Part shown: positions 45,810-51,097 of the stretch, one piece after another
Position numbering within the stretch: the first letter of the stretch is position 1
Layout of the letters: every line of letters begins with the position of its first letter
Assembly: GCA_947625655.1 (NCBI GenBank)
Contig: CANQPD010000003.1
Coordinates: 54,259 to 118,258 of the forward strand
Direction of reading: 5' to 3'
Origin: an uncultured Dysosmobacter sp.
GTDB taxonomy: Bacteria > Bacillota > Clostridia > Oscillospirales > Oscillospiraceae
DNA length: 64,000 nt
Translations under genes and position numbers: made by a program
The notes under the pieces: generated by a model
Databases searched by the model: none
Told to the model about the DNA's origin: nothing
What the model saw: the letters and a program-made list of their open reading frames with translations, nothing else

Positions 45810-46006
45810 TCCTCCTCCCTGTCTCCGCCCCGGATGTGGCCCCGGAAGGTGTCTCCCGTCCGCCGGGGCAAAAAGGAGATGGGCTCCGGGGTCTTTTTGC
45901 CGTGGTAATAGCACCACAGCCACTTGAGGCACCAGATGAACTTCCGCAGAAGCAGCAAAAGCAGGATCAGCAGCGCCAGCCGCAGCAGATTCAGCACTCG
46001 TTCCAT
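45806..46006 (-). CDS. possible 66-aa membrane peptide overlapping the mutY stop and the next start
   Basis: MERVLNLLRLALLILLLLLLRKFIWCLKWLW.... ATGA-type overlap with the downstream gene. Support is positional only. Confidence 0.3.
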   Translation of the reverse strand: MERVLNLLRLALLILLLLLLRKFIWCLKWLWCYYHGKKTPEPISFLPRRTGDTFRGHIRGGDREEE

Positions 46007-47103
46007 GTCTGCTCTCCCATCCGCTCCCGGGCCTCCGCGCAGTACCGGGCGAAGGCCGAGGGCACGGCGTGGGTCTCCAGACCGTCCAAATCCACCCACG
46101 CCCATTCCGCCGGGCCGTCCCCGGTGACCTCCAGGGTGTAGCCTGTCATGTGCCACTCCACATGGGTGAAGATGTGCTTGGCCGCCAGCTTGTTTCTCCA
46201 CGCCTTGGGCTCCAGCCCCCAGGCCGCCACTTGCGCCGGGGCGGTCTCCTCGGTCAAAACGCCCTCCACATTGGGGAACTCCCACAGCCCCGCCAGCAGG
46301 CCTGTCTTCGGCCGCTTCCGCAGGGCGGTTTTACCGTCCCGCAGCAGGAGGAACACGGTCCTCTCCTCCACCCGGCGGGCCCTTTTCGCCGCCTTTACCG
46401 GCAGGACCTCCGCCGTGCCCCGGAGGCGGCCCAGGCAGAAGTCCGCCGCCGGACAGAACAAACACTTCGGCGGGCCGTTGGGTGCGCAGACCGTGGCCCC
46501 TAGCTCCATGGCGGCCTGGTTGAAGACGCGGACGTCCTCCGCCCGCTCCGGCATGATGGCCTGCACCCACGCCCGGACGGCCTTCTTCGTTTTGGGATCC
46601 AGGATGTCGTCATGGCAGTCGGTGATGCGGGCCACCACCCGCAGCACATTGCCGTCCACCGCCGCCTCCCGCCGGCCAAAGGCGGCCGAGGCGATGGCGC
46701 TGGCGGTGTAGTCCCCGATCCCCGGCAGGGCCAGCAGCCCCTCATAGGTATCCGGGAAGCCGCCCCGCTCCGCCACGATCTTCGCCGCCTTTTGGAGGTT
46801 CCGGGCCCGGCTGTAATAGCCCAGGCCCTCCCACAGCTTCATCAGCCGCTCCGTGGGGGCGGCGGCCAGGTCCTCCACCGTGGGGAAGGCATCCAGAAAG
46901 CGGGCATAATAGCCCAGGACCGCCGCCACCCGGGTCTGCTGGAGCATGATCTCCGACACCCAGACGCGGTACGGGTCCTGGGTCCGCCGCCAGGGCAGGT
47001 CCCTGGCGTTCTCCCGATACCAGGCCAACAGCGGCCCCGGCAGGCGGGAGAGCACATTTTCAGTTGTCAGCTCTTGTTGTTTCATGCTATTATCATACCA
47101 CAC
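45991..47103 (-). CDS. mutY: A/G-specific adenine DNA glycosylase
   Basis: ...LLAWYRENARDLPWRRTQDPYRVWVSEIMLQQTRV..., ...GLGYYSRARNL..., ...LPGIGDYTASAI..., 4Fe-4S cluster CxxxxxxCxxCxxxxxC, NUDIX-like C-terminal domain. The start is GTG 47103 or ATG 47085. Confidence 0.85.
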   Translation of the reverse strand: MWYDNSMKQQELTTENVLSRLPGPLLAWYRENARDLPWRRTQDPYRVWVSEIMLQQTRVAAVLGYYARFLDAFPTVEDLAAAPTERLMKLWEGLGYYSRARNLQKAAKIVAERGGFPDTYEGLLALPGIGDYTASAIASAAFGRREAAVDGNVLRVVARITDCHDDILDPKTKKAVRAWVQAIMPERAEDVRVFNQAAMELGATVCAPNGPPKCLFCPAADFCLGRLRGTAEVLPVKAAKRARRVEERTVFLLLRDGKTALRKRPKTGLLAGLWEFPNVEGVLTEETAPAQVAAWGLEPKAWRNKLAAKHIFTHVEWHMTGYTLEVTGDGPAEWAWVDLDGLETHAVPSAFARYCAEARERMGEQTWNEC

Positions 47104-47149: not shown

Positions 47150-47180
47150 TTGACCTTCCCCCTGCTGGAAGGTATACGAT
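47150..47180 (+). promoter_or_regulatory. MerR-type promoter: TTGACC, 19-nt spacer containing the inverted repeat ACCTTCC-N7-GGAAGGT, then TACGAT
   Basis: Read directly. A 19-nt spacer with a dyad inside it is the established hallmark of MerR-family-controlled promoters. Confidence 0.55.
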
Positions 47181-47204
47181 AACTCCAGAAACGAGGTGAG
47201 CCCC

Positions 47205-47855
47205 ATGAAGATCAACGAGGTGGAGGCCCTGGTGGGCATCACGAAAAAGAACATCCGCTTCTATGAGGCCGAGGGCCTGCTGGCCCCCCGGCGGAACAGC
47301 GAAAACGGCTACCGGGACTACGGCGAGGCGGAGGTGGAGACCCTGCGGCGGATCAAGCTGCTGCGGAAGCTGGGCGTGCCGCTGGAGGAGATCCGCAGGA
47401 TGCAGAGCGGGACCCACACCGTGGGGGACGGCATGCGCCGCCACCTCATCACCCTGGAGCGGGACCGGGAGAACCTGGAGCAGTCCATCCGCCTGTGCGG
47501 CGAGCTGACCGGCTGCTGGGAGCGGCTGGGCGATCTGGACGCCGGGGCCATCCTGGCGGAGATGGAGGCCATGGAGCACTCCGGCGCGGCCTTCCCGGAC
47601 AAGCAGCGTCAGGACATCCGGATCCGGTATGTGGCCCCGGTGGTCATCACGCTGCTGACAGTGGCGCTGATGGCGGCCCTGGCGGCTCTTATTATCTGGG
47701 GCAGCCTGCTGGATCCCATGGAGGCGCCGCCCCTCGTTTTGCTGCTGGTGCTGGCCGCCCTGCCCCTGCTGGTGGCCGGCGGCGTGCTGCTGGCCCTGTT
47801 CCAGCGGATCCGGGAGATCGGGAAAGGAGAGATCGATGATGCGCGGCAATTCTGA
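47205..47855 (+). CDS. MerR family regulator fused to a 2-TM C-terminal module
   Basis: MKINEVEALVGITKKNIRFYEAEGLLAPRRNSENGYRDYGEAEVETLRRIKLLRKLG. Two TM segments, then the tail LALFQRIREIGKGEIDDARQF. Confidence 0.8.
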   Translation: MKINEVEALVGITKKNIRFYEAEGLLAPRRNSENGYRDYGEAEVETLRRIKLLRKLGVPLEEIRRMQSGTHTVGDGMRRHLITLERDRENLEQSIRLCGELTGCWERLGDLDAGAILAEMEAMEHSGAAFPDKQRQDIRIRYVAPVVITLLTVALMAALAALIIWGSLLDPMEAPPLVLLLVLAALPLLVAGGVLLALFQRIREIGKGEIDDARQF

Positions 47856-48096
47856 GAAACGGAAAAAGCGGGCCGCCCCGCTGGCCTGCGCCGCCCTGGC
47901 GGCGGCGTTTCTGGGGCTGCTCCTGGCGGCGCTGCTGCTGTTGCTGCCGGAGGCGGGCGGAGACGCGTCCGTCCTGATCATCCTGGCGCTGTACGCCGTG
48001 GTGGTGCTGGCCATGATCGGCGGCGTGCTGCTGGCCCTGGGCCAGCGGCTGCGGGAGATCGAAGGAGGCGAGGAAGAGGATGCCCGAAAGTATTGA
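47836..48096 (+). CDS. 2-TM protein paralogous to the MerR C-terminal module
   Basis: 86 aa: basic N-terminus, two TM segments, tail LALGQRLREIEGGEEEDARKY. Its start lies inside the MerR tail codons. Confidence 0.55.
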   Translation: MMRGNSEKRKKRAAPLACAALAAAFLGLLLAALLLLLPEAGGDASVLIILALYAVVVLAMIGGVLLALGQRLREIEGGEEEDARKY

Positions 48097-48343
48097 GGCC
48101 CGCCGCGCCCGGCGGAAGCGGGAGGCGGTGCGGGGCGTGGTGCTGTTCGGATTGCTGCAGCTGGCCTGCGCCGTGTGCTTTGCCTCGCTGTGCTTCATTC
48201 CGGGGCTGCCGGGGTGGGCCGTTGTGCTGTTCGCGGTGCTGGCGCTTCTCTGCGCGGCGCCGCTGGCGTTTTCCCTGGTGACTTTAAAACAGAGATTTCG
48301 TGAAATTGAAGGAGGAGAATTAGATGCTGCTGCTGAATATTGA
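48080..48343 (+). CDS. 2-TM protein, third copy of the module
   Basis: 87 aa: basic N-terminus, two TM segments, tail LVTLKQRFREIEGGELDAAAEY. Confidence 0.55.
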   Translation: MPESIEARRARRKREAVRGVVLFGLLQLACAVCFASLCFIPGLPGWAVVLFAVLALLCAAPLAFSLVTLKQRFREIEGGELDAAAEY

Positions 48344-48635
48344 CTACATTCCCGGAAAGGAACTGGAGGCCCTGGGCATCGTAAAGGGCACGGTGGTCCA
48401 GTCCAAAAACTTCGGCAAGGACTTTATGGCCGGCATGAAGACCCTGGTGGGCGGCGAGATCACCGGCTACACCGAGATGCTGAACGAGGCCCGCCAGATC
48501 GCCACCAAGCGGATGGTGGACGAGGCCGCCGCCCTGGGGGCCGACGCCGTCATCAACATCCGTTACGGCTCCTCTGCCGTGATGCAGGGCGCCGCAGAGG
48601 TCATCGCCTACGGCACGGCGGTGAAATTCCGGTGA
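48324..48635 (+). CDS. YbjQ (UPF0145) family heavy-metal-binding-domain protein
   Basis: 103 aa: ...GIVKGTVVQSKNFGKDFMAGMKTLVGGEITGYTEMLNEARQIA...GADAVINIRY. Confidence 0.85.
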   Translation: MLLLNIDYIPGKELEALGIVKGTVVQSKNFGKDFMAGMKTLVGGEITGYTEMLNEARQIATKRMVDEAAALGADAVINIRYGSSAVMQGAAEVIAYGTAVKFR

Positions 48636-49348
48636 TGCGCGTCACATTCCTGGATCACAGCGGCTTTCTCATTGAGCTGCCGTCTGTGACGCTGCTGTTC
48701 GACTGGTGGAAGGGGGAACTCCCGGCCCTGCGGCCGGGGGTCCCCCTGCTGGTCTTTGCCAGCCATCACCACGAGGATCACTTCAAGCCGGAGATTTTCG
48801 CCCTGGACGACGGCGCCCGGGAGGTGCGCTTCCTGCTGGGAAAGGACATCCGGCTGTCGCCCCGGAACCGGGCGCGGTGGGGCGTCTCCGGCGAGACCGC
48901 CGCAAGGTGCTTGACGCTGGGCGGCAACGAGACGGCGTCCCCCCTGCCGGGGGTGACGGTGGAGGCCCTGCCCTCCACCGACGAGGGCGCGGCCTTTCTG
49001 GTGACGGCGGAGGGGCGGGCTGTCTTCCACGCAGGAGATCTGAACTGGTGGCACTGGGAGGGGGAGGACAAGGCCTGGAACCGGAACATGGAGGTCAATT
49101 TCAAGCGGTACACGGAGCCTCTCCGGGGGCGGCGCATGGACCTTGCCATGCTGCCCCTGGACCCCCGGCTGGGGGAGCCGGGCTTCTGGGGTCCCCGGTA
49201 CTTTTTGGAGCTGGCGGACATCGAACGCTTCCTCCCCATGCACCAGTGGGGCGATTTCGGCTTTACAGAAAAGTTTTTGGCCCAATACCCCCAGTTTACC
49301 CCCCAGACTGTGCCCGTGACAGGCCGGGGGCAGTCCTTTGACTTTTGA
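48635..49348 (+). CDS. MBL-fold metallo-hydrolase
   Basis: ...VFASHHHEDHF (HxHxDH)..., ...FHAGDL.... The ATG overlaps the ybjQ-family TGA (TGATG). Confidence 0.75.
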   Translation: MRVTFLDHSGFLIELPSVTLLFDWWKGELPALRPGVPLLVFASHHHEDHFKPEIFALDDGAREVRFLLGKDIRLSPRNRARWGVSGETAARCLTLGGNETASPLPGVTVEALPSTDEGAAFLVTAEGRAVFHAGDLNWWHWEGEDKAWNRNMEVNFKRYTEPLRGRRMDLAMLPLDPRLGEPGFWGPRYFLELADIERFLPMHQWGDFGFTEKFLAQYPQFTPQTVPVTGRGQSFDF

Positions 49349-49367
49349 ACACCGAAGGAGAGAGAAC

Positions 49368-49667
49368 ATGCAGATCGACGGCAACGAGCTGGCCATCCGG
49401 CAGAACGACCTGGACCGGGCGGGCCGCCACGAGGAGGCCATGGCCATCAAGCGGGAATTTTTGAAGCAGGTCCGGGAGAGCGGCGACCACTGCCCCTGCC
49501 AGGAGGCCTGCCCCCACCACGGCAACTGCTTTGAGTGCGTGACGCTGCACCGGGGCCACCGGGACCACCTGCCCATGTGCCTGTGGGACATGGTGAACGA
49601 GCGGCTTTACAAGCTGTCCCTGATGACGGAGGGGACCCTGCGCACCTACGAGGACGAGCACGCCTGA
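49368..49667 (+). CDS. small Cys/His-rich protein
   Basis: ...SGDHCPCQEACPHHGNCFECVTLHRGHRDHLPMC.... GAAGGAG lies 7 nt before ATG 49368. Confidence 0.55.
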   Translation: MQIDGNELAIRQNDLDRAGRHEEAMAIKREFLKQVRESGDHCPCQEACPHHGNCFECVTLHRGHRDHLPMCLWDMVNERLYKLSLMTEGTLRTYEDEHA

Positions 49668-49708
49668 GCAGGCGAGAGCGCGGATGCACCGGCATCCGCG
49701 CTCTTTCC

Positions 49709-51097
49709 TTATCCCAGCACCACGCCGATGACCAGAAACGCCATGGTCAGCAGCAGGAAATACAAAATCAGCTTCCAGACATATTTGACCCAGCGGTCAT
49801 AGGGCACATGGCCCAGGGCCAGGGCGCCCATCACCACCGCCGCCGTGGGGGTGATGATGTTCACCAGGCCCGAGGCGGACTGGAAGGCCGTCACCACCAG
49901 GTCGCCGCCCACCCCCGCGAACTGCCCCAGGGGCGCCATGATGGGCACCGACAGCGTGGCAAGGCCGGAGGAGGACGGGATCAGGATGGTCAGGGGCAGA
50001 TAGATGAGATACACCAGCAGCACGAAGCTGACGGGTCCCGCGCCGGACAGCGCCTCCTCGCCCCAGTGAAGCACGGTGTCGGTGATCTGGCCGTCGTTCA
50101 TCAGCACGGTGATGCCCCGGCTGATGCCGATGATGAACGCCACGCCCAGCAGGTCCGCGCAGCCCGCCACGAAGGTTTCGGCGATCTCGTCCTCCCGCTG
50201 GCCGTCGATGAGGCCGATGACGACGCCGCCCACCAGGAACAGGGCGGACAGCTCCGGGAACCACCAGCCCAGGGCCGGCAGCGGCAGGCCCATCTCGTCA
50301 AAGGGGATGACGGCGTAGATCATGATGAGGAAGGTCAGGGTGAACAGCGCCAGGATGACCTTGCGCTTGGGGGTGAAGGGCACGGCCTCGTCCATGGTGA
50401 CCTGGAGCCTGCCCGCGCCCACACCCACCACGGATTTGGAGGGGTTTTTCTTCACCTTGGCGGCGTAGGCCATCACGAACCAGATGGCGGCGCTCTCAAA
50501 CACCACCCACTGGATGACGCGGAGCAAAATGCCCTCCCCCAGGGACACGCCGGCAAAGCCCGCCGCGATGCCCGTTGCAAAGGGATTCACCGTGGAGCTG
50601 ATGACGCCGGCGCCGGCCCCCAGCAGGATCACGGAGATGCCCACCACCGCGTCATACCCCGCCGCCAGGAACACGGGGATCAGCAGCGGATAGAAGGCCA
50701 TGGTCTCCTCCCACATGCCGTAGGTGGTGCCGCCCAGGCCGAACAGCAGCATCAGGATGGGGATGAGCCATTTCTCCTGGCCGTCCAGCAGGCGGATGGT
50801 GTCGCTGACGCCGGCGTCCACCGCGCCGGTCTTCATCACCACCCCCAAAAAGCCGCCCACCATCAGGATGAACACGCAGACATCCACGGCGTCATAAAAG
50901 CCGGAAAAGGCGGCCTTCAGCACGTCGCCCACTCCCTGGGGGTTGGGCGCCACTTCATGATACGTCCCCGCCGCCGGCACGCCGTCCACGTATTCATAGG
51001 CTCCCGCCGGGATGATCCAGGTGGCAACGGCCACCAGGATGATGAGCAGGAACAATATCGTGTACGCCGTGGGCATGCGGAACTTGGGTTTTTCCAA
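49709..51097 (-). CDS. YfcC/DcuC-type anion permease, likely arginine/ornithine antiporter of the ADI pathway
   Basis: 462 aa, polytopic: ...MPTAYTILFLLIILVAVATWIIPAG..., ...GGTTYGMWEETMAFYPLLIP.... Lies immediately downstream of arcB. Confidence 0.75.
   Translation of the reverse strand: MEKPKFRMPTAYTILFLLIILVAVATWIIPAGAYEYVDGVPAAGTYHEVAPNPQGVGDVLKAAFSGFYDAVDVCVFILMVGGFLGVVMKTGAVDAGVSDTIRLLDGQEKWLIPILMLLFGLGGTTYGMWEETMAFYPLLIPVFLAAGYDAVVGISVILLGAGAGVISSTVNPFATGIAAGFAGVSLGEGILLRVIQWVVFESAAIWFVMAYAAKVKKNPSKSVVGVGAGRLQVTMDEAVPFTPKRKVILALFTLTFLIMIYAVIPFDEMGLPLPALGWWFPELSALFLVGGVVIGLIDGQREDEIAETFVAGCADLLGVAFIIGISRGITVLMNDGQITDTVLHWGEEALSGAGPVSFVLLVYLIYLPLTILIPSSSGLATLSVPIMAPLGQFAGVGGDLVVTAFQSASGLVNIITPTAAVVMGALALGHVPYDRWVKYVWKLILYFLLLTMAFLVIGVVLG

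Follow-up and report, generated by a model that had tools for sequence, protein, structure and literature searches.

A candidate membrane-tethered MerR-type regulator encoded with two paralogs of its own membrane anchor and a YbjQ protein in overlapping genes of Oscillospiraceae and Lachnospiraceae

The 64-kb stretch of DNA from an uncultured Dysosmobacter sp. analyzed here (contig CANQPD010000003.1, the whole stretch being called the window) carries six open reading frames (ORFs) in a row, all on the + strand. They encode a MerR-type regulator ending in a predicted hairpin of two transmembrane (TM) helices (MerR-2TM), two small proteins that resemble this hairpin (modules A and B), a YbjQ/UPF0145 protein, a metallo-beta-lactamase-fold (MBL) hydrolase and a Cys/His-rich protein. 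The first four genes overlap one another, and the same arrangement recurs in 80 species-level genomes. This recurrence, the 679 protein clusters related to the hairpin modules and a promoter dyad that is unique within the window place the arrangement far beyond chance. As we read the sequences, the chances are about even that these genes encode a membrane-tethered, autoregulated one-component MerR regulator that is assembled with its paralogs A and B and with YbjQ. Gene coordinates are given throughout as positions in the window.

The regulator gene (47205..47855) encodes a protein of 216 amino acids (aa) that scores 74.4 bits against Pfam MerR_1 (E 7.6e-21; cut-off 21.6) and 43.3 bits against Pfam MerR (cut-off 28.2). 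Its predicted layout comprises a CueR-like winged helix-turn-helix (HTH) at aa 1-70, a dimerisation helix at 73-102 and a linker helix at 113-125, followed by TM1 at about 143-169, a short outer loop, TM2 at about 175-199 and a tail at 200-216. The AlphaFold2 model (predicted local distance difference test, pLDDT, 87) likewise shows the winged HTH and the helices 73-102 and 113-125, and predicts a hairpin formed by helix 133-169 (TM1), a 7-residue loop and helix 177-208, in which TM2 runs into the tail, with the end of the protein being less certain. No known ligand domain was found in the C-terminal part by Pfam, NCBIfam or the AlphaFold2 model, and the two-TM hairpin and tail are found there, where MerR proteins usually carry an effector-binding domain or loop. 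A DNA-binding MerR_1 domain and two long hydrophobic helices are joined in one polypeptide, as in predicted transmembrane transcription regulators. Homologs fill at least 7043 clusters at 90% identity, originating from Oscillibacter, Dysosmobacter, Faecousia and Lachnospiraceae, and all of them are named only 'MerR family transcriptional regulator'. The start codon is GTG or TTG in most relatives and ATG in the window, which suggests that the regulator may be translated weakly relative to the coupled downstream genes. Some long 'fusion' proteins (P0152-P0158 and P0121) carry a C-terminus of the regulator type on unrelated N-termini, and these look like chimeras of assembly or gene calling, not real architectures.

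The last ~80 residues of MerR-2TM and the two small proteins encoded downstream, module A (47839..48096, 85 aa, or 86 aa if read from 47836) and module B (48080..48343, 87 aa), are mutually similar in BLASTP (1e-10, 3e-4 and 8e-7), with module A matching the MerR C-terminus at 1e-10 and scoring 100 bits on the hidden Markov model (HMM) of the family. Each of the three modules, termed M (the regulator's own), A and B, combines a basic stretch with two hydrophobic helices and a tail, and the common architecture pointed out in the preliminary description of this region proved to be that of true paralogs. A profile built from the three window modules and searched against 1.84 billion representative proteins (threshold E ≤ 1e-3) retrieved the 679 clusters, formed at 50% identity, of which most are stand-alone proteins of 80-90 aa and some are MerR fusions of ~215 aa; no model in Pfam, NCBIfam, PHROG or PADLOC covers this family. 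In addition, a scan of one genome per species with an A-type module alignment as query found 263 genomes with a relative, from which 80 loci were retained for the synteny work and annotated by HMM for the modules, the MerR domain, YbjQ, the MBL hydrolase and the Cys-rich protein.

The nearest relative of a module in another genome belonged to its own class (M, A or B) in 220 of 228 cases, and module A orthologs were found in 80 loci, while paralogs within one genome share only 15-22% identity outside the tail. The median ratios of nonsynonymous to synonymous substitutions (dN/dS) in the non-overlapping central parts were 0.44, 0.37 and 0.34, which indicates purifying selection. Judged by these comparisons, M, A and B are ancient, separate orthologous groups, and therefore each copy has been retained. 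The small ORFs are real conserved genes, in agreement with the preliminary description, with A and B ortholog classes in two families and a dN/dS of 0.34-0.37.

Proteins of this size with two TM helices and a charged C-terminus recall class II holins, and the modules could be viewed as holin-like proteins, or as other membrane-lesion proteins that come from phages or defence systems, placed under the control of MerR. A weak sub-threshold match to Pfam Phage_holin_3_6 (19.5 bits; cut-off 28.4) and the double ATG at the start of the window module A are in line with this view. However, no relative was found among 2.9 million viral contigs, searches of the modules against PHROG and PADLOC gave no match, the neighbourhoods contain neither a lysin nor any phage gene, the loci hold a stable chromosomal position beside housekeeping genes in many species, and most relatives start module A without the double ATG seen in the window. 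We consider this origin very improbable, and the absence of viral relatives and of PHROG matches largely refutes it. A role in anti-phage defence was also discarded, as the sole PADLOC match was a generic HTH match to the MerR domain.

Module B also gave a borderline match to Pfam Rv2743c (28.5 bits; cut-off 27.7) that covers only profile positions 18-81 of 237, and it scored 29.1 bits on the NCBIfam Rv2743c/PspM model, whose cut-off is 80; among 16 B-type proteins, seven matched Rv2743c at E below 0.01. The mycobacterial Psp system (ClgR, PspA, PspM/Rv2743c and Rv2742c) follows a similar logic, since an autoregulated operon there encodes a regulator together with a small two-TM protein and a soluble protein that forms oligomers. 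Nevertheless, the match of module B is restricted to the hairpin of Rv2743c and lies far below the NCBIfam cut-off, PspA is present in that system and absent here, and neither the regulator nor the soluble partner is related to its counterpart here. The resemblance of module B to Rv2743c may reflect composition only.

The three proteins share the ending L-x-QR-x-(R/K)-EI-x-x-GE-x-(D/E)-x-A-x-x-(Y/F), and across the 679 clusters the tail L-x-QR-(L/I/F)-(R/K)-E-I-x-x-G-E-x-(D/E)-x-A-x-x-Y-stop is near invariant. In the window, the tails read QRIREIGKGEIDDARQF in MerR-2TM (47802..47852), QRLREIEGGEEEDARKY in module A and QRFREIEGGELDAAAEY in module B. The codons of the MerR-2TM tail contain a Shine-Dalgarno (SD) sequence GGAG at 47826-47829 and the ATGs of the next gene at 47836 and 47839. 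That each tail holds the SD and the ATG of the following gene, as first noticed in the window, was confirmed there and in the relatives. The junctions, in gene order, are overlaps of 20/17, 17 and 20 nt, then a TGATG and finally a gap of 19 nt. Overlaps of 17 or 20 nt were found in 213 of 233 junctions overall, namely in 69/76 junctions between MerR-2TM and a module, in 70/76 between two modules and in 74/81 between a module and YbjQ, where the overlap is always 20 nt.

The codon choice in the overlapping tails follows these start signals. The Gly before GE is encoded by GGA in 60/62 MerR-2TM tails and in 73/73 and 74/74 of the module tails, and the Asp that forms the ATG is encoded by GAT in 68/68 MerR-2TM tails and in 73/73 further tails, while the Asp next to it in the MerR-2TM tail is GAC in 53/63 cases and only 31% of the background Asp codons are GAT. 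Taken over all tail Gly codons, GGA accounts for 67% in overlapping tails, 23% in non-overlapping tails and 18% in the background of the same genes. Moreover, an out-of-frame ATG lies within the last seven codons of all 208 overlapping tails and of 2 of the 12 non-overlapping ones. Fisher tests gave p = 4e-84 for overlapping tails against the background and p = 4e-5 against non-overlapping tails, both computed without phylogenetic correction for shared ancestry.

Tails with no overlapping gene retain the peptide, for example EIDGGEEEEASRY in L003, L080 and L082, and encode it with GAC GGC GGC GAG GAG, a stretch with no SD or ATG. The tail is accordingly a protein motif first, with SD and ATG as a codon-level overlay that is kept only under overlap, because the non-overlapping tails keep the peptide and lose the codons that carry the start signals. 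The opposite view, that the tails resemble one another only because an initiation cassette was copied at the nucleotide level in each duplication, and that the small ORFs do not encode functional proteins, can draw on the SD and ATG in the tails and on the B-YbjQ junction, whose DNA is near invariant in the relatives (GGA GGA, then GAT GCT GCT GCT CAA TAT TGA). It is nonetheless scarcely credible and can be taken as refuted: non-overlapping tails keep EIDGGEEEEAxxY using GGC GGC and Glu codons, the final Tyr/Phe and the QR..EI residues are near invariant in the 679 clusters though they lie outside the SD and the ATG, and conservation of the A and B classes extends to the protein level (dN/dS ~0.35). 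At the B-YbjQ junction, the last 20 nt of module B encode both its DAAAQY-stop tail and, in another frame, the N-terminus MLLLNI of YbjQ. In the same way, the M-(Q/R/P)-(K/N) beginnings of A and B would be imposed by the DA(K/R)(K/Q)Y tails.

Translationally coupled genes, whether joined by ATGA, by TGATG or by longer overlaps with an internal SD, likewise carry the SD and start of the downstream gene inside the upstream coding sequence. Proportional synthesis is expected from coupled overlapping genes, and coupling through an internal SD is an ordinary mechanism. In comparison with ordinary coupled genes, the overlap described here is long (17 or 20 nt) and fixed, lies inside a conserved peptide motif and has spread three times through duplication of the module. 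The dual constraint on the tail that the preliminary description called unusual is therefore present, but the internal-SD coupling itself is ordinary and it is the iteration by gene duplication that stands out. The unusual element is the threefold iteration of coupling inside a conserved peptide motif, with relatives that act as natural controls.

The loci were found in Oscillospiraceae (Oscillibacter, Dysosmobacter, Faecousia and Pelethomonas) and in Lachnospiraceae (Tyzzerella, Acetatifactor, Faecalimonas and Choladousia). MerR-2TM, A, B and YbjQ, with or without additional genes, occur together in 68 of 83 loci across the two families. MerR-2TM with one module and YbjQ was found in 4/83 loci, MerR-2TM directly overlapping YbjQ in 2/83 (L067 and L078), and a module with YbjQ and no MerR in another 2/83 (L054 and L058); the other 7/83 loci are either truncated at a contig end or split the MerR domain and the hairpin between separate reading frames. 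YbjQ follows a module in every complete locus. The conserved core thus consists of four genes, and the invariant pair is formed by a hairpin-tail module and YbjQ, because the minimal loci (L067, L078, L054 and L058) keep that pair. In L051, L063, L065 and L074, MerR-2TM and module A are separated by a gap of 85-640 nt that contains no second operator.

The YbjQ gene (48324..48635) encodes 103 aa and matches Pfam YbjQ_1 with E 3.4e-37 and 127.6 bits (cut-off 23) over profile positions 1-102 of 103. Its relatives in the PDB (1y2i, 1vr4 and 2gtc) have five chains per entry. A literature search on YbjQ, UPF0145 and PF01906 returned nothing functional, and metal binding by YbjQ has never been demonstrated in that literature.

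The expression of this operon would be driven by a promoter at 47150..47180, with the -35 element TTGACC at 47150-47155, a 19-nt spacer and the -10 element TACGAT at 47175-47180. The perfect dyad ACCTTCC-N7-GGAAGGT (47153-47173) is the sole match in the 64-kb window, and 71 of 75 related loci carry TTGACy-19-TAnnnT with the dyad ~52 nt ahead of the MerR start, so that the MerR-type promoter with a 19-nt spacer and an internal dyad seen at the outset was borne out; an over-long spacer of 19-20 bp that holds a dyad is typical of the targets of MerR regulators. This operator nearly matches a CueR box: the window sequence CTTGACCTTCCCCCTGCTGGAAGGT and the copA promoter of E. coli, CTTGACCTTCCCCTTGCTGGAAGGT, which lies upstream of copA in 5417 of 5426 genomes, are one base apart, and that base is internal to the CueR box. 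By analogy with the MerR family, MerR-2TM is probably an activator that works by DNA distortion. A degenerate second dyad (e.g., AGCCTCCACCGAGGGGAAGGC, with 2-3 mismatches) occurs ~335 nt upstream of the MerR start in the Oscillibacter clade, at the same place in each of nine loci (L017, L021, L030, L044, L053, L066, L070, L075 and L079), and is probably inside a neighbouring gene.

The likeness to CueR raises the question of whether MerR-2TM senses metals or thiols in the cytoplasm and is anchored in the membrane only incidentally, its signal being a soft metal (Cu(I), Ag(I), Zn(II) or Cd(II)) or an electrophile. According to this explanation, sensing would take place at the dimer interface through Met77, His80 and Cys98, and the operon would be a metal-stress response made up of YbjQ, described as 'putative heavy-metal-binding', a zinc hydrolase and a Cys/His-rich protein. 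CueR, ZntR, CadR and MerR share with MerR-2TM the winged HTH followed by a long helix, which in the MerR family forms an antiparallel coiled-coil dimer and in MerR-2TM is a putative dimerisation helix. The solved relatives by sequence in the PDB are CueR, BrlR, TipA and MerR, with CueR as the best match, over residues 1-68; the fold neighbours of the model are CadR, CueR, MerR and PbrR, of which CadR and CueR match best. The helix 73-102 is modelled in the monomer with pLDDT above 90 and superposes on those of CadR and CueR. Among 132 homologs, Cys98, His80, Asp75, Thr72, Trp165 and Pro175-Pro176 do not vary, and Met77 varies hardly at all. Thus, the CueR-type HTH and operator, the fact that all structural neighbours are metal-sensing MerRs and the conservation of Cys98, His80, Asp75 and Met77 speak for a metal sensor. 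Besides, Met77 lies opposite Ser77 of CueR if the 1:1 alignment of residues 1-68 extends that far, the two most divergent members have a Cys at position 76, and Pfam describes YbjQ_1 as putative heavy-metal-binding.

Several observations, however, make a metal sensor rather unlikely. The two-Cys metal loop that follows the dimerisation helix in CueR (Cys112 and Cys120) is absent from MerR-2TM, which has instead the linker helix, the two TM helices and the conserved acidic tail, and MerR-2TM reaches only 52.9 bits on the CueR model TIGR02044 (cut-off 147.4), over residues 1-68 only. The putative dimerisation helix of MerR-2TM is also shorter than in CueR-type regulators, and the genes it would regulate are not metal exporters; no metal transporter or chaperone was found in any of 83 loci. 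Cys98 is the sole invariant Cys and lies inside the helix (Cys105 of the window protein is not conserved), at what reads as a heptad core position of a coiled coil, and its conservation may be structural. In addition, the tails contain no Cys, His or Met, the supposed metal binding by YbjQ lacks any demonstration in the literature, and the MBL and Cys-rich genes lie outside the conserved core.

The fifth gene (48635..49348) encodes an MBL hydrolase of 237 aa that matches Lactamase_B_3 (E 3.8e-7; 30.6 bits, cut-off 24) and has an HHHEDH motif that fits HxHxDH. It follows YbjQ in 22/83 loci by direct search and in ~35 by clustering, that is, in about a quarter to 40% of the loci. The sixth gene (49368..49667) encodes a Cys/His-rich protein of 99 aa with the pattern CPCQEACPHHGNCFEC...H..H..H...C, for which no family was found in Pfam, NCBIfam, PADLOC or PHROG, and the AlphaFold2 model of this protein has a pLDDT below 50 around the Cys cluster. 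The protein has 221 homologs at 73-90% identity in several genera of Clostridia, some of them named 'LPS biosynthesis protein' by NCBI, and the gene is present in nine related loci. It is probably co-transcribed here, although it stands outside the conserved core and looks like an independent gene that is adjacent in this genome. Of the six-gene operon proposed in the preliminary description, MerR-2TM, A, B and YbjQ hold as members of the core, while the MBL and Cys-rich genes are lineage-specific additions.

Downstream of the last gene lies a terminator-like hairpin (49674..49712, + strand) with a 14-bp stem followed by UUUCCUU (folding energy -32.9 kcal/mol, z -6.2), which is common to the operon and to a convergent DcuC gene. 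A folding scan within the operon showed no comparable hairpin and no internal terminator, and the region had no match to Rfam at E below 0.1. Re-reading of the sequence bore out the positions initially given for the six ORFs, the modules and the promoter, and independent gene calls on identical contigs gave proteins of 216, 85, 87, 103, 237 and 99 aa. Two starts had to be corrected: relatives and the independent calls place the start of the first small gene at the second ATG, 47839 (85 aa, 17-nt overlap), and not at 47836, and the sixth gene starts at 49368 and not at 49369. Likewise, the overlap first put at 16-20 nt is real, with exact values of 17 or 20 nt when the stop codon is included. 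On the other side of the operon, a divergent gene for a MutY-type adenine glycosylase (HhH-GPD and NUDIX_4; 45991-47103, - strand) lies 100 nt upstream of the MerR start and is probably unrelated, because the neighbour differs in more distant relatives. Clustering of the neighbourhoods, which is noisy because of shadow ORFs in high-GC DNA, found no widely conserved neighbour besides the MBL and YhfC genes.

YhfC, an intramembrane metalloprotease (PF10086, E 1e-39 to 1e-47), is encoded on the same strand in 21 of 85 loci, where its gene either closely precedes MerR or closely follows YbjQ (e.g., L046:3474-4235 and L063:4451-5209), and no YhfC gene was found in the window. Several of these genes have their own copy of the operator, which in L065 is identical to the copy before MerR. 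In the four loci with no operator directly before MerR, YhfC lies between the operator and MerR and is the first gene behind the operator.

These genes would fit a feedback circuit of protection from proteolysis or titration, similar to the co-component regulators ToxR/ToxS and TcpP/TcpH, in which A and B would compete with MerR-2TM for a partner (a YhfC-type protease or YbjQ) or shield it from that partner, and the output would be set by the amount of free or uncleaved regulator and not by a ligand. The paralogs share with the regulator precisely the parts that a partner could recognise, the hairpin and the tail; the YhfC genes are linked to 21 of the 85 loci and have the operator in common with them, and coupling fixes the ratio of regulator to paralog. 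Nevertheless, we find this circuit doubtful, since YhfC is missing in the window and in three quarters of all loci, the L067 and L078 systems lack a stand-alone paralog altogether, neither a cleavage site nor a degron is known, and apart from the tail the paralogs share only 15-22% identity with the hairpin of the regulator.

ToxR/ToxS, TcpP/TcpH, VtrA/VtrC, CadC and BcrR also join a DNA-binding domain and a membrane tether in one polypeptide, and the co-component systems among such regulators likewise have small co-transcribed membrane partners and a possible link to an intramembrane protease. The DNA-binding domain of ToxR- and BcrR-type regulators is of the OmpR or XRE type, whereas that of MerR-2TM is of the MerR type. 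In contrast to co-component systems, moreover, the hairpin of MerR-2TM has almost no external loop and so no sensor domain on the outside, its partners are paralogs of the regulator's own anchor, and a soluble YbjQ protein is always co-encoded.

For the assembly of MerR-2TM with A, B and YbjQ, which we favour, the following mechanism can be proposed. A MerR dimer would bind the dyad and activate transcription through the DNA untwisting usual for MerR proteins. The start signals placed in the tail codons of the conserved 17- and 20-nt overlaps would lead, through translational coupling, to synthesis of the four proteins in step. These would form a single complex in the membrane, with the three hairpins packed against each other, and the shared acidic tail with its terminal aromatic residue would act as a docking peptide for a common partner, most plausibly YbjQ, given that its gene accompanies them throughout, even where MerR-2TM has no paralog beside it. 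The state of the complex would set the activity of the regulator, and this state could be shifted by a perturbation of the membrane, by an ion or by YhfC cleavage. As the hairpin has nearly no outside loop, the signal would have to be picked up inside the membrane or the cytoplasm, or else via the partners. The preliminary description had put forward A and B as hypothetical decoys or partners in sensing, perhaps of metal or envelope stress. In a stronger form of this assembly proposal, the regulator would be a stoichiometric subunit of the complex that it controls, in which three paralogous hairpins would offer identical docking tails to a YbjQ pentamer, and we regard this form as rather improbable.

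Three points weigh against the proposed assembly. Modules A and B are separated by an insertion in four loci, an opposite-strand PilZ-domain gene in L003 (5942-6679, - strand) and L004 and an insert of ~870-970 nt in L080 and L082; in these loci the tail of module A has lost the GGA and GAT codons and kept the peptide. Because the operon is split there, strict coupling of the four genes is not essential. In addition, the codon statistics are uncorrected for shared ancestry, and the CueR-type operator could be read by a separate soluble CueR-like protein.

Membrane regulators with a MerR domain have been counted before, with 386 MerR and 350 MerR_1 domains in a census of 50,302 transmembrane regulators (PMC10269533, supplementary table). 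Neither in this census nor in further literature on membrane-anchored MerR proteins was any of them described. Hence, the initial impression that this is not a described system holds in that no publication or family model was found, but the category of membrane-anchored MerR regulators had already been counted (PMC10269533).

Gut Oscillospiraceae and Lachnospiraceae commonly carry this system, with 263 species genomes and thousands of metagenome protein clusters, and current annotation presents it only as 'MerR family' and hypothetical proteins. It offers a tractable case for how a MerR activator could operate when tied to the membrane and devoid of a ligand-binding domain, and a clean natural example of a short sequence under the constraints of both a peptide motif and a translation start, with the non-overlapping relatives as internal control. 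It also links the YbjQ/UPF0145 family, structurally known and functionally blank, to a specific candidate partner in the membrane. If the stronger form of the proposal, with the regulator as a stoichiometric subunit, is true, transcription would report the assembly or conformational state of a membrane complex, which would represent a new mode of MerR sensing with no ligand pocket, and the operon would provide the first functional handle on the widespread YbjQ/UPF0145 family.

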